64,000 nucleotides of DNA from Candidatus Adlerbacteria bacterium (GCA_963749085.1 CAVVLG010000002.1:370085-434084), one strand, 5' to 3'; shown: positions 45,461-61,653, numbered from the stretch's first letter. The notes: generated by a model not told the origin, from the letters alone. Translations and numbers: made by a program.

Positions 45461-45850
45461 GCTTAGTTGTTAATCAACTGGAGCGGGCACTTTTGTACCA
45501 AAAAGCCCACCACGTGAGTGAGGGCTTGCGCCCTCCGTATCGGTTTCCCGATACGGCCGGTAAAGACAAATCCCACGCGATGGGGTTTTTGGTCTTTACC
45601 GGTCCACCGACCATATCGTCCGGCAGTATGCCAAACGGGTTAGGTCGTTGCCCTCGCGGGCTATTCAGTTGTGGCTTCATGATATAGCAGGTCGCCATAT
45701 CCGCATAGGGTCAGGCGGAGCAAGTGCCCAGTAGCTTTTAGGGACCAATTCGCGCCACAGAGGACCCCAACAAGCCACAAGGGGTGCAAAACATGGGCGG
45801 GGTGTGGGTAGCTCCACTTCCCCGCCAGTATCCGATATAGTCATGTCTGT

Positions 45851-46929: not shown

Positions 46930-48898
46930 ATGTCCCCTTCCCTGGAACCCCAAGGTTACACGCTGCCGGTAGGCACCAACTTATACGTATCTTTTATGCG
47001 CACGATACGTCAACAGGATATCGTTTCTTTTCTTGCCGTCTTTATTTCCATACTGGTCGCGATCAAATTAAACCAGTACATCTTTTTTCATTTCAATACC
47101 AGCCCGGCGATCATTTTTCTGCCGACAGGTATCGCGCTGGCGGCGGTCTATCTGGGAGGCTATCGCATGTGGGTACCTATAGCCGCTGCATGGTTTCTTG
47201 GCTCGGTGACCAGTTTCTCGCACCCTACTCTCGTAGTGGATGCCGCGGCCACGGTCGGCTACACGCTTGAAGCGGTCATCGGCGGGTATGCACTTGCACG
47301 CCTGAAATTTGTAGGTGATCTGGCACGCACCCGTGACGCCTTTATACTCATCGCCGCTTCCTTGTTGCTTCCCGTCATCGCGCCAAGCATCACCGCGAGT
47401 GTACAGTGGCTGACCCATGCGCTCCCCAGCTCAGTGTGGGTGACGTGGAGCCGCGCGTGGGCCGGAGGCGCACTGAACATACTCGTGTTATTGCCGCTCA
47501 TCACCACCTGGTATAGAGATCGTACAACAAAAACTTTTAGAAAACTGCTTGAAATTACTCTGGCTCTCCTCGCCCTCGCGTTCGTTACCTATCTGGTCTT
47601 TTGGAGCCCGCTTGTGCAGGCTAATGGATTCATTGTGTTGTATGCGCTCTTTGCTATCTTGTTTTGGATAGGATTACGGATGCACCCCAGAATTATTACG
47701 ACTGCCGTGTTCCTAGTCATGCTGCTCAGCTTCGCCGGTAGCCTCATTGCCCGCCCCACCACAACAACGAAGCTTGATCAACAGCTGCTTTCCGATGAAT
47801 TGTTTATCGTTCTCATCGTCCCCATATTTTTAATTCTCGCCGCATTGGTGGAAGAGCGTCGGGTGAAAGAGCGGGAACTTGAAGAAGCGATCGATAAGCT
47901 TTCGCAGGAAGACCAGGCAAAAAATGAATTCCTGGCGACGCTTGCGCATGAGTTGCGCAACCCCCTGGCCCCGATAGTGAGTTCGCTTGAACTCATGAGA
48001 CTGGAGGCTCGGCAGTTGGCTCGACCTAATCTTATGCAGCTCATTGACGTCACCGACCGGTATAATGCGATGATTGTTCATTTACTTGATGATCTTTTGG
48101 ATATTTCCCGCATATCACACAGGAAGTTCAAGCTCCAAAAGGAAAGCTTGGAGTTGCGCCCAGTTGTCGAACACGCGGTACGGACGGTCGATGCTATGTA
48201 CAAAGCCAACAACCACACGCTCTCCGTATCAATGCCGGAGGAGACATTATGGATCGAGGCGGACCCCCTGCGGCTAAGGCAGATCCTTATCAATCTCCTC
48301 AACAATGCCGCAAAATATACCAACCCAGGAGGGAATATTGTATTAAGCGTCGTGTTTGACCCGGATCGTGGCTTGCGCATCAGTGTGAGAGATAACGGGG
48401 TGGGGATCGAACCGCACATGCTGAAGAAAATCTTCGAGCCGTTCGTGCAGTCGGATGAGAGCAGGTCGGGGCTCGGCATTGGACTTTCACTGACTAATCA
48501 TCTGGTGAACCTTCACGATGGCGTAGTGTGGGCGGAGAGCGAAGGATTGGGCAGAGGAAGCGATTTCATCGTAGTCTTGCCCGGCGCTGACAGAGTGCGG
48601 TTGCCACTTCGGGTAGCAACCCCAAAACGCCGCCGAAGAGAATTTCCTTTCATCGGAAAAAGGAGCCAACGAAAACGCTCTATTCTCATTGTTGATGACA
48701 ACAAAGCCGCGGCAGAGAGCCTCGGCAAACTGCTGGAGCACGGCAGTCATACCGTCGCGTTTGCCTATGACGGGTCGAGTGCGATTGCAAAAATGAAGAA
48801 TGCCGAAGCGGACGCGGTACTGCTCGACATTGAACTTCCTGATATGGACGGATATGAGGTCGCACGAAGTTTGCGGCAAGAACATGGTTACAATTCTC
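46930..48898 (+). CDS. Hybrid sensor histidine kinase (MASE1-like membrane sensor, HisKA, HATPase_c, C-terminal receiver) - receiver domain interrupted by IS insertion
   Basis: ORF 46930..48927; EFLATLAHELRNPLAPI (H-box), GLGIGLSL, receiver start RSILIVDDNKAAAESL...LDIELPDMDGYEVARSLRQEHGYNSL then IS; more likely start MRTIRQQ at 46996. Confidence 0.8.
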
Positions 48899-48965
48899 TA
48901 GAACCAATCTCAAAAATACCGTTGTAGACTAAAGGCACAGGGCGTTACCCGTAATTTGCCTGCCC

Positions 48966-49508
48966 ATGCCTCTCACCAACGAGCAGTGGAGCGTCATCGC
49001 TCCGTTTGTCACACCCCTCAAGCGTTTGGAAACCCGCGGCCGTCCCCGGCAGGACGACCGCAAGATACTGGAAGGTATCCTCTGGGCACTGAAGACCGGC
49101 GCCCAGTGGAAGCACCTGCCGAAAGACTACCCGCCCTACCAGACCTGCCATCGCAGGTTCCAGCAGTGGGTGGAGAGCGGCGCCTTTGACCGCATCGTCG
49201 AAGCCCTGGCCATGGACATGGAATACCGGGGGCGCATCAAGCTCAGGAGCTGCTTTCTCGATGCCACCTTCGCGGGGGCAAAAAAGGGGGTCTTGGCGTG
49301 GGACCCACGAAGCGTGGGAAAGGCACCAAGATCATGGCGATTGCGGACGAAGGCTCTCTTCCAGTCGCCGTCTATGTGGCCTCTGCTTCTCCGAGCGAAG
49401 TCCGGTTGGTTGAAGACACGCTTGCCCGGCGATTTACCCGACAGAATCCGCTTCGCCTCACGGCTGACCGAGCATATGATTCCGATCCGCTGGATGGAAC
49501 GCTCCTGA
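48966..49508 (+). CDS. IS5-family transposase OrfA (N-terminal DUF4096-like part)
   Basis: 180-aa ORF; slippery heptamer A AAA AAG at 49280..49286 allows -1 shift into OrfB. Confidence 0.75.
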   Translation: MPLTNEQWSVIAPFVTPLKRLETRGRPRQDDRKILEGILWALKTGAQWKHLPKDYPPYQTCHRRFQQWVESGAFDRIVEALAMDMEYRGRIKLRSCFLDATFAGAKKGVLAWDPRSVGKAPRSWRLRTKALFQSPSMWPLLLRAKSGWLKTRLPGDLPDRIRFASRLTEHMIPIRWMERS

Positions 49509-49738
49509 ACAAATACCGCATCAAACTCATTTCACCGCATCGCAGAGGCCGGGTGCGCAGAGCAACACAGGACGGCAGGGCGCTGCGCTCCTACAAGCGC
49601 CGGTGGAAGATTGAGCGGCTGTTCGCGTGGATGCACAACTGGAGAAAGCTCGTGACTCGCTACGAATACAAACTGCAGAACTTTGCCGCCTTCGTGAAGC
49701 TCGCGTGCATCATGCTATTACTCAAACATTATTTTTGA
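49298..49738 (+). CDS. IS5-family transposase OrfB (DDE domain), expressed as OrfAB fusion by -1 frameshift
   Basis: 146-aa ORF in -1 frame relative to OrfA; predicted fusion ...DATFAGAKKGGLGVGPTKRGKGTKIMAIADEG... Confidence 0.75.
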   Translation: MGPTKRGKGTKIMAIADEGSLPVAVYVASASPSEVRLVEDTLARRFTRQNPLRLTADRAYDSDPLDGTLLNKYRIKLISPHRRGRVRRATQDGRALRSYKRRWKIERLFAWMHNWRKLVTRYEYKLQNFAAFVKLACIMLLLKHYF

Positions 49739-49749
49739 GACTGGTTCTA

Positions 49750-49923
49750 GTACTTGTTGCGCTCACGGGCTACGGACAGGAAGAGGATAAAATAAAAGCG
49801 CAAGAGGCCGGATTCAATCATCACCTGACCAAGCCTGTTAGTATTGCAGATGTCGAAGCTATCCTCGCGAAGGATACATCCAACCCCCCCCGGCACGCGG
49901 ACGACAATTCTTTAACTAAGTAG
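49750..49923 (+). pseudogene. 3' fragment of the interrupted histidine-kinase receiver domain
   Basis: Removing IS plus one TA restores ...LRQEHGYNSLVLVALTGYGQEEDKIKAQEAGFNHHLTKPVSIADVEAIL... in the kinase frame. Confidence 0.8.
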
Positions 49924-50080: not shown

Positions 50081-50575
50081 ATGCTAGAGCAATATGCATC
50101 GTTCTTCGCAGCGAGTTCGCAGGCATCGGCCGCTTTGGTCGGGCTTCTTTTTGTTGCACTTTCTATTGACGTCGACCTCGAGCGGGGATTTCGGTTCAAG
50201 CAATTTGCATTTTCTGAAACCGCGTTCATATCGCTTGGGGGTATCTTTATCATCTCACTTTTGGCGCTATTGCCCTCTGGCCTGTTGCTGATGACGGGTG
50301 CCAGTATCGTCCTTTCTGTCATCGGCATTTGGGGCTTGCTGCGGCGCACACACCCCCAGATCAAGCTGGTGCTGCTGCCAGTGGATTTTTGGCAGGTCTT
50401 TGTGACCGTCGGCGTCTATATATGGCTCGCGGGCACAAGCCTATGGTTATTGACGGTGGAAGAGTCAGTAACTTTGTTAAATATATTCTGCATGTTGCTG
50501 GGGATACTATATGTGCTTTCTCTCATACGTGCATGGCGCTCACTTCTTATCATCAAACATTATATGTCTAATTAG
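50081..50575 (+). CDS. Hypothetical membrane protein (4-5 TM)
   Basis: 164-aa hydrophobic ORF. Confidence 0.45.
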   Translation: MLEQYASFFAASSQASAALVGLLFVALSIDVDLERGFRFKQFAFSETAFISLGGIFIISLLALLPSGLLLMTGASIVLSVIGIWGLLRRTHPQIKLVLLPVDFWQVFVTVGVYIWLAGTSLWLLTVEESVTLLNIFCMLLGILYVLSLIRAWRSLLIIKHYMSN

Positions 50576-50646
50576 GGGGAGATTTACCGCTTCATATTCG
50601 CTACAGCACCCCCATAAGGATTTCTTGGGCGATTTCAATGTACCAG

Positions 50647-50772
50647 ACTTAGGCGTCCCGGTCGGGGGCACTGGCATGCGCGGATATTTGAATGACGTTC
50701 GAACCGTCATTCTATAGGGGAAGACTGAGTTTAGCTATAAGCCGCTTACGCTGATGGCAAAGGTGACACAGC
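50647..50772 (+). repeat. ~125-bp repeat element, copy A (direct repeat of 54659..54784, ~80% identity), contains hairpin GAATGACG-TTCGAAC-CGTCATTC
   Basis: By-eye alignment cccggtcgggggcacYggcRtgYgcggatatttgaatgacgtYcgaaccRtcattcta...ctgagttt...cttacg...atggcRaagg. Confidence 0.6.
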
Positions 50773-50834
50773 TTCGTTAAACTGTCCCGCACAGTCCAAA
50801 TAGATACTTTCGCCAGTCGTGATATACTTAAAGT

Positions 50835-51014
50835 ATGAATAAGACTCGCAAGAAAAATGTCTCTTTGAGTGACCTCTACCAGGAAGTCCGGGCCTTGCGC
50901 CGGGACGTGTCGGTGTTCATACCCACCGAGTCCCTAGACGATTACAAAAACAAAACGGAAATAGTTGCCGCACATCGCGATGCGCGAAAACAAGCTCGAG
51001 CCAGAGAGGTATAG
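50835..51014 (+). CDS. Putative antitoxin (59 aa), partner of RelE/ParE toxin
   Basis: Hand-translated MNKTRKKNVSLSDLYQEVRALRRDVSVFIPTESLDDYKNKTEIVAAHRDARKQARARGV; below ORF-track length cutoff; stop 2 bp before toxin ATG. Confidence 0.45.
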   Translation: MNKTRKKNVSLSDLYQEVRALRRDVSVFIPTESLDDYKNKTEIVAAHRDARKQARAREV

Positions 51015-51016
51015 CT

Positions 51017-51271
51017 ATGCGGATTATCCGCACACTGAAGTTTGAAAAGATGCCCGAACGGCTGCCCGCATCCGTACAAAAGGCGTACGTCGAGCAAGAA
51101 ACGATTTTGCAGGGGAATCCCAAAGATCCTCGCCTCCATTTGAAGAAATTGCAAGGGATTTATGACACCTATTCCTTCCGCATAACCCGCTCTTACCGAG
51201 CACTTTTCATTTGGGAAGTTAATACCGTCTGGCTGTTCGCCATCGGTGATCGAAAAGACATTTATCGATAG
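51017..51271 (+). CDS. relE: Type II toxin, RelE/ParE superfamily
   Basis: 84 aa; KDPRLHLKKLQGIYDTYSFRITRSYRALFIWEVNTVWLFAIGDRKDIY. Confidence 0.7.
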   Translation: MRIIRTLKFEKMPERLPASVQKAYVEQETILQGNPKDPRLHLKKLQGIYDTYSFRITRSYRALFIWEVNTVWLFAIGDRKDIYR

Positions 51272-51301
51272 AGGTTTCGATCTCACTAGAGCCGTTGATG
51301 A

Positions 51302-53167
51302 CTACTGACCCAAAACCCCTCTCGTCAATGGGCCCACATAGCCCGCTACAGGAGATATATTGTTGAGCATTTGGTACTGCATGACCGCGTTTCGCGTCAG
51401 CGGCCCGAAATAGCCGGTCACCAATGCCTCAGGATAGTAGCCATTGTTTGCCAGGTGGGTCTGAAGCGCAATCACGTCAGGGCCTTGCACCCCTTGATAT
51501 AAGTCGCGGGAAAGCATGAGGGGCGTGGTCACTGCGGCTTCCGCGGCAGGGATATCAACCTGTTCTTCGCCGGCTTGCGGGGTGACGTTAAACCGCGAGG
51601 CAGTGGTGAATCTGCCGTATTGGTCATAGGAGTAAAGCGCATAGTGATATTCGACGCCGTTTTCAACGTCAGTATCCGTAAAAGTCGTTGAGGGGCCGTC
51701 GTAAATGATATCGCCATCAATGCGCGAGAGTACTGCGTCGCTGCCTTCTTTTTTGACGATAACCGTATGGATAGTTCCGTTTTGGATGCCGGTGTCTTTG
51801 AGCCAGTCGAAGGAGACCTCCCCGTCGAGTGGCGTAACGTTGAGAAGCAGCGGATGTGAATGCACCACCGGCAGGCCGCCACCTCCCTGGGCCGCTGCCG
51901 CTTGTGCTCCTTGCTCGGCAATAGTTGCCAGGACTTCTGCACTGCTTGAAGCAGTGGGTTCGGAAGATACGGGTTCAGTCGGCGTCGAAGTACCGGAAGA
52001 CAACAATGATTCGGTGGTAAATGTCCTGTCCTTGCCGAATGCTGTGTTTCCGTCGCTGTCGGCAGCGACGATACGGAAGTGATACAAGGTCGAGGGAGTG
52101 AGAGTATTGATAGTTCGACTGTGCGACGTCTGCAACGTTTGGTCGTTTCCAAGAGATGAGCCATAGGACGTGCTCGTCCCGTATTGAATATCGGATGTCG
52201 CCGGTTCAGAAGTTGTCCACGAAATGGTTATCGTCGAGGTTGAAAGAGAACTCGTCGCCACGTTCGAGATGATCGGATATATAGGCGCAGCTTGCACTTT
52301 GAGCGTTGTGAAAGTTTCGGCGAGACTGTACGCCGTTTCGCCGGAAGAGGTTTTTGAGATGGCGCGATAATAATATTTAGTGTTCGGTGTTAATGATGAG
52401 AGAGACGCCGAATGAGATTGGGATATAGGTCCTAAGGCGGTGAGTGAGCCGTAGGTATTGGTTGGGCCGTATTCGACTTGCGAGTCGGCATCCTGGTTAG
52501 TTTGCCATGTGATAGTGGCTGTCGAGGAACTTACTTGTGACGTCTCGGTATTGGAGATTGCCAGAGCGGGCGCCGGGGGAGTCGATGAAGCAGACTCCAT
52601 GTTCTCTGTCGTTGTCGCTGCGGAAGTTGCTTCGGTTTGTGTTGTCTCGTTATTCTCCGGAGTAGAGGTTGCAGCTGTTGAAGTCGATGTCTCTTCAGCT
52701 GGCGGCTCAACTGGCTCCGATACAGGAGTCGCGAGCGTCGTGAATGTCTCATCACCTGTTATGGCCGCCGTCCCCGCGCTGTCTACGACCACGACGCGAT
52801 AGTGGTAGAGGGTCTCCGGTGTGAGATTCTCAAGGACAAATGATGGCGAGGTAGTGAACTCGCTCGTGAGCGGGGTTGAAGCGCCGTACTCCTCAGTGGT
52901 GCCATACTCGACATACCCTTGCACCATCTCATCTGAATTCACATCTATTTCTGCGCTTGTGTCGGTGATATTGGTAACAGAAATGCTTGAAATTGAGGGG
53001 CCGACCGGAGCGGGAGGGGCCATTTCTTCGGTCGGCGGCGGAGTCATTTCCTCTACAGGAGGAGCAGTATCATTGGTAGTATCCGCTGGGAGCGTTTGGG
53101 CAAGAACTGACGCGATTGGGGTAAAGAGAATGGAACAAGAGAGTACTGCGGAGAATATTTTGATCAT
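51302..53167 (-). CDS. Secreted protein: signal peptide, three fibronectin-type-III-like repeats, C-terminal peptidoglycan-binding (PG_binding_1-like) domain
   Basis: 621 aa; MIKIFSAVLSCSILFTPIASVLA; repeated YHYRVVVVDSAGTAAITGDETFTT / YYYRAISKTSSGETAYSLAETFTT / YHFRIVAADSDGNTAFGKDRTFTT; C-terminal DVIALQTHLANNGYY...GYFGPLTRNAVMQYQ. Confidence 0.65.
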   Translation of the reverse strand: MIKIFSAVLSCSILFTPIASVLAQTLPADTTNDTAPPVEEMTPPPTEEMAPPAPVGPSISSISVTNITDTSAEIDVNSDEMVQGYVEYGTTEEYGASTPLTSEFTTSPSFVLENLTPETLYHYRVVVVDSAGTAAITGDETFTTLATPVSEPVEPPAEETSTSTAATSTPENNETTQTEATSAATTTENMESASSTPPAPALAISNTETSQVSSSTATITWQTNQDADSQVEYGPTNTYGSLTALGPISQSHSASLSSLTPNTKYYYRAISKTSSGETAYSLAETFTTLKVQAAPIYPIISNVATSSLSTSTITISWTTSEPATSDIQYGTSTSYGSSLGNDQTLQTSHSRTINTLTPSTLYHFRIVAADSDGNTAFGKDRTFTTESLLSSGTSTPTEPVSSEPTASSSAEVLATIAEQGAQAAAAQGGGGLPVVHSHPLLLNVTPLDGEVSFDWLKDTGIQNGTIHTVIVKKEGSDAVLSRIDGDIIYDGPSTTFTDTDVENGVEYHYALYSYDQYGRFTTASRFNVTPQAGEEQVDIPAAEAAVTTPLMLSRDLYQGVQGPDVIALQTHLANNGYYPEALVTGYFGPLTRNAVMQYQMLNNISPVAGYVGPLTRGVLGQ

Positions 53168-53358
53168 AATTTTGAAATCTCTTTTAAGTCTTTGTCCGGC
53201 AGGTAGAGAATAAGTAAACCGATAATAATTCCGCCAATAGCTGTCCAGATATGGCTACCGCCAAAGAGATACACATCCATTTTGTCGAGCAGATACCAAA
53301 TGCCACGCCATACCAGCACTATCCCGACCACTATTGCTATAATCCGTACAGTCTTCAT
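53164..53358 (-). CDS. Small membrane protein (2 TM)
   Basis: 64-aa hydrophobic ORF, ATGA overlap with downstream gene. Confidence 0.4.
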   Translation of the reverse strand: MKTVRIIAIVVGIVLVWRGIWYLLDKMDVYLFGGSHIWTAIGGIIIGLLILYLPDKDLKEISKL

Positions 53359-53399
53359 AGCCGTAAGTGTAGCACTCTAATGTCTGCTACACTGCAGGT

Positions 53400-53699
53400 A
53401 TGTTGCTGAAGGAGTTTATACATTTTTTGAAAGAGTATAAGGTCGTGTCCCTAGCAGTGGCTTTTATCATGGGTACGGCAGCTACTAACTTGGTTGACTC
53501 TTTGGTAAAGAATATATTCCTTCCTTTGCTGGCACCACTCCAAGCGGCGGAGACTTGGGATAAAGCGGTGCTCTCTATAGGACCGGTCACACTAACCTAT
53601 GGAGCGTTCCTCGACGAGCTTATTAATTTTATTATCCTCGGCTTCCTGGTGTTCCTGTTGGCGCGAAAGCTGCTCACCATGGAAAAGGAAGGAAAATAA
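53400..53699 (+). CDS. mscL: Large-conductance mechanosensitive channel MscL
   Basis: 99 aa; LKEFIHFLKEYKVVSLAVAFIMGTAATNLVDSLVKNIFLPLL ... TYGAFLDELINFIILGFLVFLL. Confidence 0.85.
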   Translation: MLLKEFIHFLKEYKVVSLAVAFIMGTAATNLVDSLVKNIFLPLLAPLQAAETWDKAVLSIGPVTLTYGAFLDELINFIILGFLVFLLARKLLTMEKEGK

Positions 53700-53702
53700 T
53701 CT

Positions 53703-54347
53703 ATGACATTTCTTTTTGAAACGAGGCCTTTCAGTGAGGAGAGCAAGCGCGCAGCGGTGGACAAGCTGCTTGAAGCGGCCTTGCCTGATAGAGACTTTTA
53801 TTTATTGGTCATCGGCGCGGCGCTCTTTGCGCTTGGCGGCATCGCTTTGGACAGTATTCCGGTCCTTATCGGTGCCATGATAGTGGCTCCACTTGCCGCA
53901 CCCATCTTGGCGCTGGGACTTGGCATTGCGACGGGCGATTGGTATCTTGCTGTGCGTTCGGTCATAACCTTGATAGCGGCATCGCTTGCCGCGGCGATCG
54001 TGGCAGCGATAGCGGCACACCTGCTTCCGCCGTTTAGCATAGATGGTACCTTTATATCCTTTGTGGCACACCCTCTGTATGACGCTGCTATCGCCTTTAT
54101 AGCCGGTGCCATAGCTGCATATGGCTATGTGCGGGCAAAAGCAGGCGGAGCATTGACTGGAATCGGCGTTGCGGTATCACTTATGCCACCTTTGGTTGCC
54201 AGTGCGCTTGCGTTTGGCACGCTTGATGTGCCGCTCCTGAAGGAATCATCGCTTATCTTTATATTGAACGTAGTGGGTATACTCGTAGGTTCTATACTCG
54301 TCTTTTCCCTATTCGGGATGCACGCGTATTACGAAAGGAAATCCTAG
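53703..54347 (+). CDS. DUF389-like hydrophobic membrane protein
   Basis: 214 aa, Ala/Gly-rich TM helices; family assignment tentative. Confidence 0.45.
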   Translation: MTFLFETRPFSEESKRAAVDKLLEAALPDRDFYLLVIGAALFALGGIALDSIPVLIGAMIVAPLAAPILALGLGIATGDWYLAVRSVITLIAASLAAAIVAAIAAHLLPPFSIDGTFISFVAHPLYDAAIAFIAGAIAAYGYVRAKAGGALTGIGVAVSLMPPLVASALAFGTLDVPLLKESSLIFILNVVGILVGSILVFSLFGMHAYYERKS

Positions 54348-54550
54348 CCGCTTTTATTTAAAAAGAAAAAGATAGAGGGACAGGAGCACCAGCACAATAA
54401 GTGAGGTTTGCATCACGAGTGCAGAATCCCACAGCGATACACCGAACACGATTACTGCGCCGATAAGCGGGAGCACTCCTGTGGTGATGTTTTTCATACA
54501 GCTAAGTATATCAGGTTATTTTTAGAGCTCGTACTCATCTTCTTCTATCT

Positions 54551-54566
54551 TATGACGGCGCTAGGG
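54551..54566. repeat. 16-nt copy of the tRNA-Ile 3' end (gcgctagggatcgaac): att-site-like remnant
   Basis: Identical to 57957..57972 within the intact tRNA-Ile gene. Confidence 0.45.
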
Positions 54567-54658
54567 ATCGAACTAAGAAAACGCTTTCGTTGAGCCATAA
54601 AAAATTTTGAGCAAAAAAGGGCGAACTGGACATGTCCAAAAAATGGCTCTGTTGAGCC

Positions 54659-54784
54659 ATCCCGGTCGGGGGCACCGGCGTGTGCGGATATTTGAATGAC
54701 GTCCGAACCATCATTCTACGGGGAAAAACTGAGTTTGGGTATAAACCACTTACGTTAATGGCGAAGGCAGTGCAGGGTGATTGA
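54659..54784 (+). repeat. ~125-bp repeat element, copy B (see 50647..50772)
   Basis: Same as copy A. Confidence 0.6.
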
Positions 54785-54810
54785 GTCTACCCAGCCAGAT
54801 TTTGTTGAAA

Positions 54811-55041
54811 TCAACTTAACCACTCTCCTTCAGGTATGCCTGACTGTTTGATTATCGAGCTTAATGTCTTAGGGTGGATGGTATCAGATCCATGATATTG
54901 CACATGGGTCATGCGTAGCTGTCCATCCTTGAATCCCCGAAAATAATGGTGGCTTCCCCGAATGTGATGGGGAACGAAACTATTCGCCTTTAGAAATTTC
55001 TCTACATCCTTGAAGGTCCAGTTTGATTTACCTCTAGGCAT
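54811..55041 (-). CDS. hicA: Type II toxin HicA (mRNA interferase)
   Basis: 76 aa; KDVEKFLKANSFVPHHIRGSHHYF...IHPKTLSSIIKQSGIPEGE. Confidence 0.8.
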   Translation of the reverse strand: MPRGKSNWTFKDVEKFLKANSFVPHHIRGSHHYFRGFKDGQLRMTHVQYHGSDTIHPKTLSSIIKQSGIPEGEWLS

Positions 55042-55386
55042 TTACACAGTGGCAAGACTTGCAACACCCGCTTTGTAGATGCCCGAAAGCGGGGATAGAA
55101 CGTTCCCCTTGTCTTTTACTGCTTGTGTTTGTGTGGCGGATGCCCACTTTGATTCATATTCCTCCTCCACGTCCTGATTGAGAATTGAATTGACCTGTTG
55201 CGGACGAAAACCTTTCAATTCCCTTGCTGACTCAAGGTATCCCTGCACAGCCTCCTGCAGTTCAAATTCAACTATTTTCGGGTCAATCCCCGTGACCACG
55301 ATGTTGAATTCAAGCGCCACGCCCACCCAGGAGTCGCCATCCTTAAAGATCATCCAACGGTATACACCACTTTTTGCCGTATTCAT
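55042..55386 (-). CDS. hicB: HicB antitoxin (UPF0150/RNase H-like fold)
   Basis: 114 aa; YRWMIFKDGDSWVGVALEFNIVVTGIDPKIVEFELQEAVQGYLESAREL; immediately upstream of hicA. Confidence 0.65.
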   Translation of the reverse strand: MNTAKSGVYRWMIFKDGDSWVGVALEFNIVVTGIDPKIVEFELQEAVQGYLESARELKGFRPQQVNSILNQDVEEEYESKWASATQTQAVKDKGNVLSPLSGIYKAGVASLATV

Positions 55387-55603
55387 GGGATCAGTCTACC
55401 ACAAACGAGCCCCTCCCGTGAAGGAGGGGCTCTCGGAGGCCGAAGCCACTTGTAGTCAGACGGTACACCTTGGCAGATGAAAAGCAAGTGTATCCAGGGT
55501 TGCCACAATCGAGAGAGAAAGCCGGTCGTCTGCGAGATGAATCTCACAAATCGACCGGTCTTTTTGCCGTGCGTCTCAACTCTATCATTTCCCCCAATGA
55601 GGC

Positions 55604-55816
55604 TTAGATGCGGATCATTCTTCCGGGACGGCGGATGGCGTACGCAGGTGGCTTGGGGTGTCGGTGTAGCGGATAGCGAAGCATTTTGTAGACGTCAAAA
55701 ATTCTTTTGAATTCTTTTTTCACGCCAGTGAAGGTCTTTGCCTGCACGGCGATATCGCGTTCGATGCATTGACCGACCCACCATCTGGATTCGCGAAAGA
55801 CGATTGCGCGCATATC
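55604..55816 (-). CDS. HicB-like antitoxin-domain protein (short)
   Basis: ORF 55604..55927; MRAIVFRESRWWVGQCIERDIAVQAKTFTGVKKEFKRIF resembles HicB core. Confidence 0.35.
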   Translation of the reverse strand, partial: DMRAIVFRESRWWVGQCIERDIAVQAKTFTGVKKEFKRIFDVYKMLRYPLHRHPKPPAYAIRRPGRMIRI

Positions 55817-56051
55817 ACGACCCATTTTCGATAGAGTTGACGATGTTATAACCAGGCCAATTGGATTTGCCGTCCTCTTTAAACCACCACACTGAGGACA
55901 TAAGGCCTCCTTGCGTTGACGTGTCAACGCCGATTCTTCGGATGATCCGCGTGCAGTCTGGAAAGTTCGGTGTGCCTTTTGGGTGTGCCTCTACTAGTTC
56001 ACATGGTTCCCCGTTTTCAAACTGGATTGACTTTGTCCAATCGAGTGGCAT
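55815..56051 (-). CDS. Hypothetical small protein (possible toxin partner)
   Basis: 78-aa ORF overlapping start of HicB-like gene. Confidence 0.3.
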   Translation of the reverse strand: MPLDWTKSIQFENGEPCELVEAHPKGTPNFPDCTRIIRRIGVDTSTQGGLMSSVWWFKEDGKSNWPGYNIVNSIENGS

Positions 56052-56198
56052 GGTTCTCCTCCAAAGTGTTGGTTGCTTCTAAAGAAAATATACCATGGTC
56101 AGATTAAATTCTTGTCCCCTGGTTGCACAGGGTCGCGGGAAAATCCCGAATGTAGTTCCAGTATAGCATTAAGGATTTAACCATCAAAAAACACCACG

Positions 56199-56384
56199 AT
56201 GAGATACGCTCACTTAGCCCCCTCAACGCTTCGAGCCGCCATCAACCAGTTGAACCCGAAAGCAATGATTTCTGGAAGTTTTGGGCAACCGGTGGTCAAC
56301 CGATGGATTGAGACAGTGCAACAAGAAACAAAAAATCCTTTACCTGCAACGCAAAATTTACAAAAAAATTTGTGCGGGCGCTAG
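56199..56384 (+). pseudogene. Tyrosine-integrase 3'-terminal fragment (~50 aa, contains catalytic-Tyr region MRYAHLAPSTLRAAI)
   Basis: Near-identical to the C-terminus of the 57238..57921 integrase remnant; followed at 56380..56410 by a degraded copy of the tRNA-Ile 3' end. Confidence 0.6.
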
Positions 56385-56410
56385 GATCGAACCCAGTCGC
56401 AACAATTCTG
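56380..56410 (-). repeat. Degraded copy of tRNA-Ile 3' end (T-arm + acceptor; ggttcgatcc-tagcgcccgcac): att-site remnant
   Basis: Compare with 57952..57980. Confidence 0.55.
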
Positions 56411-56736
56411 AAGAAGCGCCAATCGAGCAAGAGAAATAAGGATTAATGGCTTAAACTAAAGGATTACTGACAAAATGTAAGATTACCAATCGTACTCACT
56501 AACTACCAAGTTTAACCAACTTTTATCACTTTTTGGGCAACCCGTGGGCAACCGCGGAATTATCAAAAAGGAACAGTACAGGGGGAAAAGTGATAAAGAT
56601 TGTGTGGAAAACACTGCTAGGCGGTGGTTTTTATGCTGTGTGTTTTTTACCGGCTTTGGTGGGTGACTAAGTGAACACTCTCTCAAGGGAAATCCGCCGT
56701 TCTGCTACGTTAAAGAGAGTTTCGGCCACAACCGAA

Positions 56737-57006
56737 TCAAAACTTCAATTTATATATCCAGTCGTGCGGACCGATGGTGAGAAAGAGCGCCGTATTGCCG
56801 TCGATAAAGCGTAGCGCGATGCGGTAGCTCCTGTCGACACGGATACTCCAAATCTCCTTGCTCTTGGGTTCAAGCTTCTCGGTGTGGAGCGACGGATAAA
56901 AGGGATTTGTGCGGAACAAAGCTTCCTGCTTCTCGGCCTTCTTTTGAACAGCTGTAGGTAGTTTGAGATACCGCTTTCGGAACTCATCCGTTACCACCAC
57001 GTCCAT
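56737..57006 (-). CDS. Type II toxin, RelE/ParE superfamily
   Basis: 89 aa; HTEKLEPKSKEIWSIRVDRSYRIALRFIDGNTALFLTIGPHDWIYK. Confidence 0.6.
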   Translation of the reverse strand: MDVVVTDEFRKRYLKLPTAVQKKAEKQEALFRTNPFYPSLHTEKLEPKSKEIWSIRVDRSYRIALRFIDGNTALFLTIGPHDWIYKLKF

Positions 57007-57015
57007 AAACAGCGA

Positions 57016-57222
57016 CTATTTTCGCCTAAGCTCGCGCAGCGAGGTGACTGTATATACCCGCCCGGCGCGGTAGTCCCGCTCGGCCCGCTCGATACTGCGC
57101 AGAAAATCAGGATTGTAGAACCCGAGGTTGGAGGCAAGACGCTCCAGCCGATCGGCGTCGAGCTCCACTAGCACCTTCTTCCCCTTCGATCCAGGGCGGA
57201 TAGTTATCATCGTCTTGCTCAT
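57016..57222 (-). CDS. Putative antitoxin partner
   Basis: 68-aa ORF directly upstream of toxin. Confidence 0.4.
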   Translation of the reverse strand: MSKTMITIRPGSKGKKVLVELDADRLERLASNLGFYNPDFLRSIERAERDYRAGRVYTVTSLRELRRK

Positions 57223-57237
57223 AGAGCTAGTATAGCA

Positions 57238-57921
57238 TAGTCCCCTTGTACGGTCATTTTTACGCGTACCTGGCTCAAATGTCCTCCACCGAAAACCGAT
57301 TATCTGTCGAAAGACGAATGCGGATTACTGCTATCTCATGCACGCGGCGTCGTATACGAGATGCTACTACTCGCCCTCCGCACGGGCATGAGGCGCGGTG
57401 AAATTATCGGCCTGCAGTGGTCATCCGTTGATTGGCAGACCCAGAACATCACGGTGCGGCATTCATATTGCGAGTACACGAAAGAGTTAGGCTCAACGAA
57501 AAGCAACCGCGAACGGCATATCCCTATGGACGCGGACGTATACGCAGTCCTCTTCAACAGAAAGCGCGACACGGGCTATGTATTCGTGGACGCAGATAAT
57601 AAGCACTTCAATGGCAGATATCTTGAGCGTCGACTAAAAGAACTCTGTAACCAAGTTGGATTGCGCAATATCGGATGGCATACGCTGCGACACACGTTTG
57701 CTTCGCACTTAGCGATGAGTGGAGTACCGCTCAACGCCGTGCAAGCACTCCTAGGTCACTCCGCCATCACTACCACGATGCGATACGCGCACTTAGCACC
57801 CTCAACGCTTCGAGCCGCTATCGACCAGCTGAACCCAAAATCAATGATTACTGACAGTTTTGGGCAACCGGTGGGCAACCAGTGGGTTGAGACATTGCAG
57901 CAAAAAACAAAAAATCCATAA
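57238..57921 (+). pseudogene. Tyrosine recombinase/integrase, 5'-truncated (catalytic domain only; no N-terminal arm/core-binding domain or start codon)
   Basis: In-frame ...YLSKDECGLLLSHARGVVYEMLLLALRTGMRRGEIIGLQW...WHTLRHTFASHLAMSGVPLNAVQALLGHSAITTTMRYAHLAP (R..HxxR..Y); frame opens right after a stop at 57235. Confidence 0.7.
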
Positions 57922-57951
57922 CGTGCAACACAAAATCGACAAAAAAATTTG

Positions 57952-58024
57952 TGCGGGCGCTAGGGATCGAACCTAGGACCTTTCGAGTATCAGTCGAATG
58001 CTCTACCAACTGAGCTACACCCGC
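57952..58024 (-). tRNA. tRNA-Ile: tRNA-Ile (anticodon GAU)
   Basis: Hand-folded: GCGGGTG/CGCCCGC acceptor, D-arm GCTC-AGTTGGTA-GAGC, anticodon stem TTCGA/TCGAA loop CTGATAC, T-arm CTAGG-TTCGATC-CCTAG. Confidence 0.85.
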
Positions 58025-58187: not shown

Positions 58188-58631
58188 ATGCAAACAACAA
58201 GTGCGCTCCGGGAAATAGTCCCGAGTAGCGCGGTAATCGGGCTTGATGACGAAGCAATTCGTCGCGATTATGAGGAGCAGGGCGCGTGGGGTCTTCTCAC
58301 GTCTATCGACCTGCATGAGTGCGATAGAGAGACAGTGCGCGATGCCGAGGCTATAAAACGCTTCGTGGTTGAGTTATGCGAGCGTATCGACATGAAGCGT
58401 TTTGGAGAGTGCACGGTCGTCAATTTCGGCGAAGATGAGCGCGTGGCGGGCTTTTCGATGTTTCAACTCATCGAAACCTCCTGCATCTCGGCACACTTTG
58501 CCAACCAGACGAACACAACCTATCTCGATATTTTCTCGTGTAAATACTATACGCCAGTCGAGGCGGCTGAGTTCGCCAAGGAATTCTTTGGTGCCTCAGA
58601 GTATAACCTGACGTATACGCTCAGGAAGTAG
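58188..58631 (+). CDS. speH: S-adenosylmethionine decarboxylase proenzyme (pyruvoyl-dependent, class 1B)
   Basis: 147 aa; WGLLTSIDLHECD, FSMFQLIETSCISAHF (E-S/S processing site), YLDIFSC. Confidence 0.85.
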   Translation: MQTTSALREIVPSSAVIGLDDEAIRRDYEEQGAWGLLTSIDLHECDRETVRDAEAIKRFVVELCERIDMKRFGECTVVNFGEDERVAGFSMFQLIETSCISAHFANQTNTTYLDIFSCKYYTPVEAAEFAKEFFGASEYNLTYTLRK

Positions 58632-58680: not shown

Positions 58681-58732
58681 GGGGTTGCTCACCCCTTACA
58701 GATCGAGTTTTTCCTTTTTGTCAGATAAGTTT

Positions 58733-59583
58733 TAGAACCAGTCTCAAAAATAATGTTTGAGTAATAGCATGATGCACGCGAGCTTCACGAAGGCGGCAAA
58801 GTTCTGCAGTTTGTATTCGTAGCGAGTCACGAGCTTTCTCCAGTTGTGCATCCACGCGAACAGCCGCTCAATCTTCCACCGGCGCTTGTAGGAGCGCAGC
58901 GCCCTGCCGTCCTGTGTTGCTCTGCGCACCCGGCCTCTGCGATGCGGTGAAATGAGTTTGATGCGGTATTTGTTCAGGAGCGTTCCATCCAGCGGATCGG
59001 AATCATATGCTCGGTCAGCCGTGAGGCGAAGCGGATTCTGTCGGGTAAATCGCCGGGCAAGCGTGTCTTCAACCAACCGGACTTCGCTCGGAGAAGCAGA
59101 GGCCACATAGACGGCGACTGGAAGAGAGCCTTCGTCCGCAATCGCCATGATCTTGGTGCCTTTCCCACGCTTCGTGGGTCCCACGCCAAGACCCCCTTTT
59201 TTGCCCCCGCGAAGGTGGCATCGAGAAAGCAGCTCCTGAGCTTGATGCGCCCCCGGTATTCCATGTCCATGGCCAGGGCTTCGACGATGCGGTCAAAGGC
59301 GCCGCTCTCCACCCACTGCTGGAACCTGCGATGGCAGGTCTGGTAGGGCGGGTAGTCTTTCGGCAGGTGCTTCCACTGGGCGCCGGTCTTCAGTGCCCAG
59401 AGGATACCTTCCAGTATCTTGCGGTCGTCCTGCCGGGGACGGCCGCGGGTTTCCAAACGCTTGAGGGGTGTGACAAACGGAGCGATGACGCTCCACTGCT
59501 CGTTGGTGAGAGGCATGGGCAGGCAAATTACGGGTAACGCCCTGTGCCTTTAGTCTACAACGGTATTTTTGAGATTGGTTCTA
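58733..59583 (-). mobile_element. IS5-family insertion sequence, copy 2 (inverted relative to copy 1), flanked tTA...TAg
   Basis: OrfA 58974..59516 and OrfB 58744..59184 identical to copy 1. Confidence 0.85.
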
Positions 59584-59742
59584 GGAGCTTTAACCGCCAT
59601 TGGTCTTCGACGAGCTTGTGATGCCGGTCATGGCAGTTCATTCGCTACTCCTCGGTTGCCGCGGGACCACCCCACGAAAAACTATCCTACTGAGCTGAAT
59701 CTACCACGTTCCTTATTTTAAACAATGACTACAGTGGATAAC

Positions 59743-59773
59743 AAAAATCACCCCACATGGGGTAATTTTTGTT
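59743..59773. terminator. Bidirectional hairpin terminator (ACCCCACATGGGGT flanked by A-run and T-run), ~250 nt downstream of 16S 3' end
   Basis: acaaaaatcACCCCAcaTGGGGTaatttttgtt. Confidence 0.5.
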
Positions 59774-60019
59774 AAAAACTGAATACGTAATTGAGTCCAC
59801 ACCTAAGCAAACACCTTTCTCTTGTTCCGCTCTTTATCTATTTTCCGTTCTGTACTCCAAAACGTACTCTGTAGATATCAAGTAGCCATACGTCTCTGTA
59901 TTTACATACAGTGGCCAATAACGAATGCGATTTAGAGTTAGCATCATCACTCTACTTTCCTTGCGGAAAATAATCGCCGATTGAGTTGCACCCTCGTACG
60001 AGAGGCACAACACCATTTC

Positions 60020-61478
<1,459 letters not shown>

Positions 61479-61653
61479 GAATATAAGATTCAGTTACGAA
61501 TCTAGACTCGATGAACGGAACAAGAGAAAAGTGTCTTCTCTTGTTTTTCTTGCTTGCTGCCTTTGCCAGTTGAATGGCAAAGGACTTATTTTTTGATCGG
61601 TGTGATCAATTCTTACAATTTTCTCAATTACGTATTCAGTTTTCAACGAACAA

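Follow-up and report, generated by a model that had tools for sequence, protein, structure and literature searches.

The stretch of DNA analysed here, a window of 64,000 nucleotides (nt) from a Candidatus Adlerbacteria bacterium (GCA_963749085.1 CAVVLG010000002.1:370085-434084), carries a direct repeat in two copies, designated copy A and copy B, whose core of about 115 nt lies at 50657-50771 and 54661-54775, respectively, with a register offset of 4004 nt. Copy A, to which no strand is assigned, is intergenic and sits between the gene of a membrane protein of 164 amino acids (aa), with its stop codon at 50575, and a relB/parE-like cassette; copy B, likewise without an assigned strand, is found within a decayed island (E2) between the stop codon of hicA (54811) and a minus-strand terminator. 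In the best-supported reading, a non-coding module of 115 nt that is specific to the lineage is present here as two paralogues. A preliminary description of the same DNA had reported a pair of direct repeats of about 125 bp; the pair is real, but its core is shorter, the offset is 4004 rather than 4012 nt, and the coordinates given at that time for copy B were 8 nt out of register.

The identity between the copies amounts to 81-85%, and their edges are sharp. For example, a repeat search of the window aligned 50651-50763 with 54655-54767 at 84% over 113 nt, again 4004 nt apart, and blastn returned 85% over 108 nt (E = 4e-31); the two-copy direct repeat is thus genuine and far beyond chance. 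The 22 differences counted in 116 nt comprise 20 transitions and 2 transversions, which bears out the earlier statement of mostly transitions, and the longest blocks that are identical in both copies measure 19 and 15 nt. Outside the core, the similarity ends abruptly, as alignments of the flanks of the two copies score at the level of shuffles (P = 0.72 and 0.88); the ideas that the repeat runs on into its flanks, or that copy A is accompanied by a decayed tRNA remnant, were likewise rejected, the alignments being at chance level. Comparison of the whole window with itself yields three repeat families only, namely an insertion sequence (IS) element, an integrase/tRNA fragment, and the 115-nt pair. 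Searches of the 64-kb window with blastn, nhmmer, and a covariance model reveal no third copy, and the covariance model scores copy A at 148.7 bits and copy B at 144.1 bits; a weak tblastx/blastn match at 41.9 kb runs antisense to a gene and was dismissed as chance level for the search space. Moreover, an independent Logan contig spanning 49722-58761 reproduces both copies, with 2 single-nucleotide polymorphisms that lie elsewhere.

At the centre of each copy lies a hairpin, to which no strand is assigned in either case. In copy A (50690-50712) it consists of a perfect 8-bp stem and a 7-nt loop, GAATGACG-TTCGAAC-CGTCATTC; in copy B (54694-54716) it reads GAATGACG-TCCGAAC-CATCATTC, with one change in the loop and one in the stem, so that the hairpin first described for both copies is exact in copy A and altered in copy B (TTCGAAC to TCCGAAC, plus the stem change). 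The stem change of copy B leaves a G-U pair in minus-strand RNA and a C-A mismatch in plus-strand RNA. The hairpin of copy A folds at -11.5 kcal/mol as minus-strand RNA and at -9.7 kcal/mol as plus-strand RNA, and that of copy B at -9.7 and -3.9 kcal/mol, respectively; by these folding energies, the central hairpin is stable in both copies only as minus-strand RNA. The loop had further been likened to the T-loop of a tRNA, a likeness that does not carry over to the second copy: copy A has G-TTCGAAC-C, while copy B has G-TCCGAAC-C, in which the UUC is lost and the stem carries the C-A mismatch on the plus strand. No tRNA-like match is returned by ARAGORN or Rfam. A tRNA-like element was rejected, as ARAGORN sees only tRNA-Leu and tRNA-Ile, and the conserved T-loop (G-UUCRANY-C) is missing from copy B.

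Beyond the central hairpin, a minus-strand consensus of the two copies retains pairing at every variable stem position, with three G-U-type changes and one compensatory change; the helices proposed for this strand are a GNRA-capped hairpin, the 8-bp hairpin, and two short GC hairpins. The consensus fold has z = -1.5 to -1.8 and a structure conservation index of 0.83-0.90, which is exceeded by about 4% of column shuffles (two sequences); it alone comes near significance on two sequences, the plus-strand consensus fold being no more stable than column shuffles (z = +0.58). Perfect 8-bp hairpins are frequent in the window as a whole, at about 17 loci versus about 7 positions in shuffles.

Copy A occupies the gap between the convergent 164-aa gene (50081-50575), just to its left, and the gene of a secreted protein with fibronectin type III (FN3) domains (51302-53167, minus strand) together with its operon. 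The same gap contains a toxin-antitoxin (TA) cassette on the plus strand (50820-51271), with a relB-like gene and a ParE-RelE-like toxin gene, which was delimited by Pfam and by homology to the cassettes of other genomes from 50820. Cassettes of this relBE type recur in unrelated contexts at 62-83% protein identity, and the homology begins 48 nt to the right of copy A; the cassette is itself mobile and has landed in the gap holding copy A. The repeat as a part of the relBE cassette was rejected, as the homology of the cassette starts at 50820, to the right of copy A, and the module is absent from the other relBE-type cassettes that were compared. The ParE-like toxin beside copy A is homologous to the one in the neighbouring island E1, with 37% identity, and no tRNA or integrase fragment is found beside copy A. 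Separately, an extended -10 element, TGATATACTTA, is present at 50818-50837 on the plus strand and at 54494-54515 on the minus strand, where it precedes by 8-10 nt the start codon (ATG) of the relB-like gene and that of a membrane open reading frame (ORF) of 47 aa, a placement that suggests leaderless or near-leaderless mRNAs.

Between the copies lies an interval of 4 kb. Its gene content was correctly described at the outset as a ParE/RelE-like pair, a protein with FN3 and PG_binding_1 domains, a small membrane protein, MscL, and a DUF389 protein, and a Pfam search of all ORFs in 50835-54347 returns ParE-like, FN3/PG_binding, MscL, and DUF389 matches only. Neither an integrase nor a transposase is found in the interval by Pfam, and the self-comparison reveals no integrase fragment in it; similarly, there is no break in GC content at its boundaries, and the repeat resembles neither tRNA-Ile nor the end of any gene. 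In distant relatives, recognised by homologues of the 164-aa protein at 49-64% identity, a secreted protein of the peptidoglycan (PG)-binding/FN3 type is encoded near the 164-aa homologue, as is MscL in one case, and this gene neighbourhood argues weakly that the DNA of the interval may be native.

The setting of copy B is different in kind. The hicA gene and its hicB-like partner (54811-55041 and 55042-55386, minus strand; Pfam HicA_toxin, E = 1.5e-12) are followed on the minus strand by copy B, 35 nt after the hicA stop codon, and directly 3' of copy B, 150 nt after the same stop codon, by an intrinsic terminator (54634-54663, minus strand), in which a stem formed by GGGAUGGCUC and GAGCCAUUUU precedes a U run (-15.5 kcal/mol, z = -3.2). 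Copy B lies between the stop codon and the terminator, and therefore within the predicted 3' untranslated region (UTR) of hicBA. The remnant of a tRNA-Ile 3' end that had been noticed about 90 bp from copy B is confirmed, as the fragment at 54553-54573 ends 87 nt before it. The segment between this fragment and copy B contains the 10-mer GTTGAGCCAT (ATGGCTCAAC on the minus strand) twice, 62 nt apart (54578-54598 and 54640-54660); the second of these 10-mers forms half of the stem of the minus-strand terminator and abuts the edge of copy B.

The mobile DNA to the right of copy B is arranged around an intact tRNA-Ile (GAT) at 57951-58024 (minus strand, ARAGORN), which is the integration target. 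Island E1 (56397-57950, decayed) contains an arm in which GGGCAACC is directly repeated, a toxin of the ParE-like kind with its antitoxin (56737-57222), and a tyrosine integrase (57289-57921; Pfam Phage_integrase, E = 4e-32) that lacks its N-terminal domain and converges on tRNA-Ile. In island E2 (54574-56372, decayed) lie copy B and hicAB, along with two small ORFs on the minus strand and a 3' fragment of an integrase gene (56193-56372). The 3' sequence of tRNA-Ile recurs at 57952-57976, 56373-56396, and 54553-54573. The middle fragment (minus strand) belongs to a repeat of 205 nt, made up of the integrase 3' end and the 3' part of tRNA-Ile, whose two copies (56193-56396 and 57772-57976) are 87% identical, and the leftmost fragment (minus strand) matches 57956-57972 in 17/17 nt. 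No integrase 3' end accompanies the leftmost fragment at 54553-54573, which is therefore read as the end of the array, with the DNA to its left as chromosomal flank. From this arrangement, the region is interpreted as two tandem decayed integrase islands at tRNA-Ile, each ending in a tRNA-Ile 3' fragment, of which E2 is the older. The involvement of mobile DNA and of a tRNA-Ile remnant, suspected in the preliminary description, is thereby upheld, with three tRNA-Ile 3' fragments bounding the two tandem islands to the right of copy B.

The cargo of the islands is almost wholly of the TA type, with hicAB and HicB-like small ORFs in addition to the ParE-like pair in E1. Related integrases in other genomes of the Candidate Phyla Radiation (CPR) show the same convergent arrangement beside tRNA-Ser, tRNA-Ile, tRNA-Gly, or transfer-messenger RNA (tmRNA) genes, with tRNA fragments at the far end. 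The surroundings of copy B thus match tandem tRNA islands, with their tyrosine integrase and repeats of tRNA 3' ends, in the converging integrase, the recurring tRNA fragments, and the TA cargo, whereas the 115-nt repeat differs from the att repeats of such islands in having no tRNA similarity and only one copy inside an island. Contigs assigned by binning to Syntrophobacteraceae, Bradyrhizobium, Devosia, and other Alphaproteobacteria also encode integrases 59-70% identical to the island integrase; these Proteobacteria-binned relatives could reflect either spread of the island family across phyla or mis-binned contigs.

As a further observation on the islands, a GGGCAACC-N3-GGGCAACC direct repeat is located in the 3' coding end of the integrase and a second time within E1, some 140 nt in from its far end. 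Six sites of the GGGCAACC type are present in the window versus 1.85 expected, with positions at 56535-56553, 57862-57880, and 56283-56290, and a tRNA-Gly island of another Patescibacteria metagenome-assembled genome has a similar motif, TTTTATCAC...GGGCAAC...GGTCAAC, at its far end (about 430-470 of that locus). Repeats of the GGGCAACC type are candidate arm-type binding sites of the integrase. An arm-type integrase site was rejected for the 115-nt repeat itself, the GGGCAACC repeats of the island family being absent from both copies.

Several features of the wider window were recorded in their own right. An IS element of 858 bp and of the IS4/IS5 type (DUF4096 and DDE_Tnp_1, probably frameshifted) is present at 48898-49755 on the plus strand and at 58727-59584 on the minus strand, in inverted orientation and 99.8% identical. 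The left copy splits the gene of a hybrid kinase with MASE1, HisKA, HATPase, and receiver domains (46930-48927 and 49627-49923), the right copy lies between the 16S rRNA gene and tRNA-Ile, and the two together enclose all of the DNA considered here. The rRNA locus is unusual: about 2 kb, taken up by the IS copy and by a gene resembling S-adenosylmethionine decarboxylase (58188-58631), separate the 16S gene (60020-61485, minus strand) from tRNA-Ile, and no 23S gene follows the 16S gene within the window; a 28-nt inverted repeat (59768-59795 and 61623-61650), which is probably a processing stem, flanks the 16S gene. At 45520-45646 on the minus strand, adjoining tRNA-Leu(CAG), an Rfam match to LOOT RNA (82.8 bits against a gathering score of 46.4, E = 4e-14) marks a candidate structured RNA in a CPR genome.

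The host is a Kaiserbacteria-like CPR bacterium, going by a named homologue of the 164-aa protein. Relatives of the module were sought well beyond the window. A 19-mer common to both copies has 0 matches in 185,579 GTDB species-representative genomes and 4 matches in JGI metagenome contigs, which extend over 19-24 nt each and are attributable to chance only. No match is found in viral contigs with two degenerate patterns and a peptide-based scan, nor by blastn in plasmids and phages. In addition, about 1.4 Mb of possibly related DNA was fetched, comprising 80 loci around homologues of the integrase, loci with homologues of the neighbouring 164-aa protein, and the loci of the closest relBE cassettes; the module is not found in these by nhmmer and the covariance model.

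A number of known element types were also considered and set aside. Rfam rejects the known RNAs, including 5S, signal recognition particle RNA, tmRNA, and ribozymes. Integron attC sites, and the Vibrio cholerae repeats (VCR, about 120-130 nt) among them, are alike in length, in their copy identity of about 80-90%, and in nearby TA cassettes, but the module has neither an overall imperfect palindrome nor an integron integrase, and its 4-kb interval consists of seven genes in mixed orientation. By inspection there are no complementary RYYYAAC/GTTRRRY boxes: GTTAAAC occurs in copy A only on its right and GTTGAGC in copy B only on its left, neither with a complementary partner, and the integrases found in neighbouring ORFs are of the tRNA-island type only, with no integron integrase. 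The template and variable repeats of a diversity-generating retroelement were rejected, since the mismatches involve all four bases in both directions and there is no reverse-transcriptase domain in neighbouring ORFs; a dif/Xer site at the replication terminus was rejected on a GC skew that is flat and noisy.

The interpretation tentatively preferred here, at a probability clearly short of even, is that the module is a lineage-specific non-coding element, probably a minus-strand RNA at the 3' ends of mRNAs. Minus-strand transcripts would then include the module at the 3' ends of mRNAs, and it would represent a 3'-UTR element or a 3'-UTR-derived small RNA built on the stable 8-bp hairpin; it may serve in the protection of mRNA 3' ends or as a small regulatory RNA, a possibility already raised in the preliminary description, one copy having perhaps been carried or captured by the island. 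Its divergence, confined nearly to transitions, might then reflect purifying selection. Transitions and transversions stand at 20:2 in the module versus 13:15 in the neighbouring 205-nt repeat of similar divergence (Fisher p = 0.001), and this bias, together with the stability of the hairpin on the minus strand only, provides two hints of constraint. Furthermore, both copies have been kept in a small CPR genome as two intergenic blocks of about 17% divergence, with flanks that share no similarity. The retained pairing of the minus-strand consensus, its near-significant fold, and the strong terminator next to copy B also speak for this reading.

Several observations weigh against this interpretation. 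Copy A is without a convincing minus-strand terminator, the TA cassette on the plus strand has come to lie between it and the closest minus-strand gene upstream, and no conserved promoter is found for either copy. The Infernal/Rfam comparison that had been recommended was run and gave no RNA-family match at the repeat: Rfam 15 has none at the gathering score or at E <= 10 on either strand of 50500-54900. As no homologue appears in the collections searched, the pair is an orphan as far as these searches reach. Folding and covariation between the copies, which had also been recommended, are not significant on the two sequences: the minus-strand conservation index is exceeded by few shuffles, and the consensus-fold energy and the counts of consistent and compensatory changes do not rise above column shuffles on either strand. 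These counts match the shuffles because divergence by transitions alone makes any fold look tolerant of G-U pairs, and the changes compatible with G-U pairing are as many on the plus strand as on the minus strand. Finally, most of the transitions fall outside the proposed minus-strand stems, and for this reason the excess of transitions is not explained by structure.

An inert relic of mobile DNA, that is, a homologous piece of two related TA-bearing islands or cassette flanks of which the rest was deleted, is almost as likely as the RNA-element reading, although it too is held with reserve. The region is full of decay, with a truncated integrase, an integrase 3' fragment, three tRNA-Ile fragments, and the 205-nt relic repeat at 87% identity; copy B lies inside island E2, copy A is only 48 nt from a mobile relBE-type cassette, and the ParE-like toxins beside copy A and in E1 are homologous at 37% identity. 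The absence of homologues and of any significant structure or coding signal would also suit a relic. It is countered by the transition ratio of 20:2, which the neighbouring relic repeat, at 13:15, does not share (p = 0.001), and by the lack of a tRNA or integrase fragment beside copy A. At the same time, E1 and the islands of related integrases carry a different far-end arm, with GGGCAACC repeats and without the module, and the close relatives of the relBE cassette are likewise devoid of it.

The preliminary description had also offered the repeats as attL and attR of an inserted segment, and in this form the 4 kb with relBE, the FN3 protein, MscL, and DUF389 would have been inserted by site-specific recombination into a module-like target, the 8-7-8 palindrome serving as the core of the crossover. 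Direct repeats do flank a discrete interval; an 8-bp inverted repeat with a 7-nt spacer is the core geometry of tyrosine recombinases, the loop resembles the T-loop targeted by the local integrase family, and identical blocks of up to 19 and 15 nt are shared. Such an insertion is nevertheless improbable. The interval has no recombinase and no GC break at its boundaries, and in relatives, genes of the PG-binding/FN3 type and for MscL persist close to the homologue of the 164-aa gene; the homology reaches 33 nt beyond the palindrome on the left and 60 nt on the right, and the two copies differ in sequence within the supposed 7-nt overlap. Above all, a terminal tRNA-Ile scar stands at the right end of the interval, which is simply explained only if the interval is chromosomal flank; the 4 kb are best read in this way because the leftmost scar lies inside the supposed segment. 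Copy A is accordingly best read as chromosomal and intergenic and copy B as belonging to island E2, and the repeats as not delimiting an insertion.

A dispersed intergenic repeat of low copy number, resembling miniature inverted-repeat transposable elements (MITEs) or the repetitive extragenic palindromic (REP) and enterobacterial repetitive intergenic consensus (ERIC) sequences and inserting near gene 3' ends, is similarly given little credence. The sharp edges in two unrelated contexts would fit it, both copies are at gene 3' ends, and copy B looks as if wedged between the hicA stop codon and its terminator. The 64 kb contain no more than two copies, both confined to 4 kb, and their 17% divergence marks them as old and argues against recent activity. 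The MITE-like element proposed in the preliminary description is not supported, with two copies only in the window and neither terminal inverted repeats nor target-site duplication: the ends of the repeat, TCCCGGTCGG... and ...CACAG or ...TGCAG, are not mutual inverted copies, and no duplication is common to the flanks. The module therefore resembles MITEs in its small size, sharp edges, and intergenic site, but not in its ends or in its two copies in the window, and it does not match the IS5-type element of the window or the ends of that element.

Two further explanations appear very unlikely. The first is coding on the plus strand, whether as a small ORF or as what is left of the 3' end of a gene since lost, with the product ..PVGGTG(V/M)(C/R)GYLNDVRT(I/V)IL(R/stop)GKTEF(G/S)YKPLTLMAK.... 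The plus frame is open across copy B, a start codon occupies the same site in both copies (ATG/GTG), the similarity stops 2-3 codons before a stop in both, and the differences number 11, 8, and 3 at codon positions 3, 1, and 2, with 11/21 synonymous versus 7.3 expected (P = 0.055); this value is not significant after correction for six frames, and copy A has an in-frame TAG. Neither Pfam nor NCBIfam gives a match, no homologue is found among 5.8 billion clustered proteins, 1.84 billion representatives, or viral contigs, and no gene is called there in an independent assembly. The second, for which the chances are equally slim, is a protein-binding site at the DNA level, centred on the 23-bp palindrome and acting, for instance, as the operator of a dimeric regulator or as an accessory site of recombination; the palindrome is near-perfect in copy A and about 110 nt upstream of the relB promoter, and arm-type repeats are indeed a feature of islands with this integrase family. 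Against it, copy B has a mutation in one half-site and is downstream and not upstream of a gene, the 115 nt conserved are far beyond the needs of an operator, and perfect 8-bp hairpins are frequent in the window, at the roughly 17 loci already mentioned versus about 7 positions in shuffles.

Returning to the preferred reading of a minus-strand RNA, two kinds of known system offer parallels. 3'-UTR elements, 3'-UTR-derived small RNAs, and REP-type stabilisers of mRNA 3' ends are exemplified in enterobacteria; the module resembles them in the position of copy B between a stop codon and a terminator, in its stable hairpins, and in the location of both copies at gene 3' ends. It differs from REP-type stabilisers in having two copies and not tens to hundreds, in showing no REP-like sequence, and in the lack of a clear terminator at copy A. 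In Salmonella, RyhB and IsrE-RyhB2 constitute a paralogous pair of small RNAs, one chromosomal and one island-borne. The present pair is similar in its two discrete copies of about 80-85% identity with unrelated flanks, one of them in horizontally acquired DNA; it differs in that no promoter, terminator, or target is identified for both copies and in that the conservation of structure is unproven.

If the pair is a relic only, the gain is a corrected map, in which decaying tandem TA-carrying integrase islands stand at tRNA-Ile beside the 16S gene and no repeat-bounded mobile segment of 4 kb exists. The more ambitious proposal, that the module represents a new family of small RNA or 3'-UTR RNA in Kaiserbacteria-like CPR bacteria, with purifying selection acting on two paralogues of which one resides in the hicBA 3' UTR of the tRNA-Ile island, is doubtful; were it true, it would link the cargo of the island to the RNA regulation of the host. 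If functional as RNA, the module would illustrate how an element of the chromosome can have a paralogue on an island, and it would join a very short list of regulatory-RNA candidates in CPR bacteria, where genomes are small and DNA without a function has little space.

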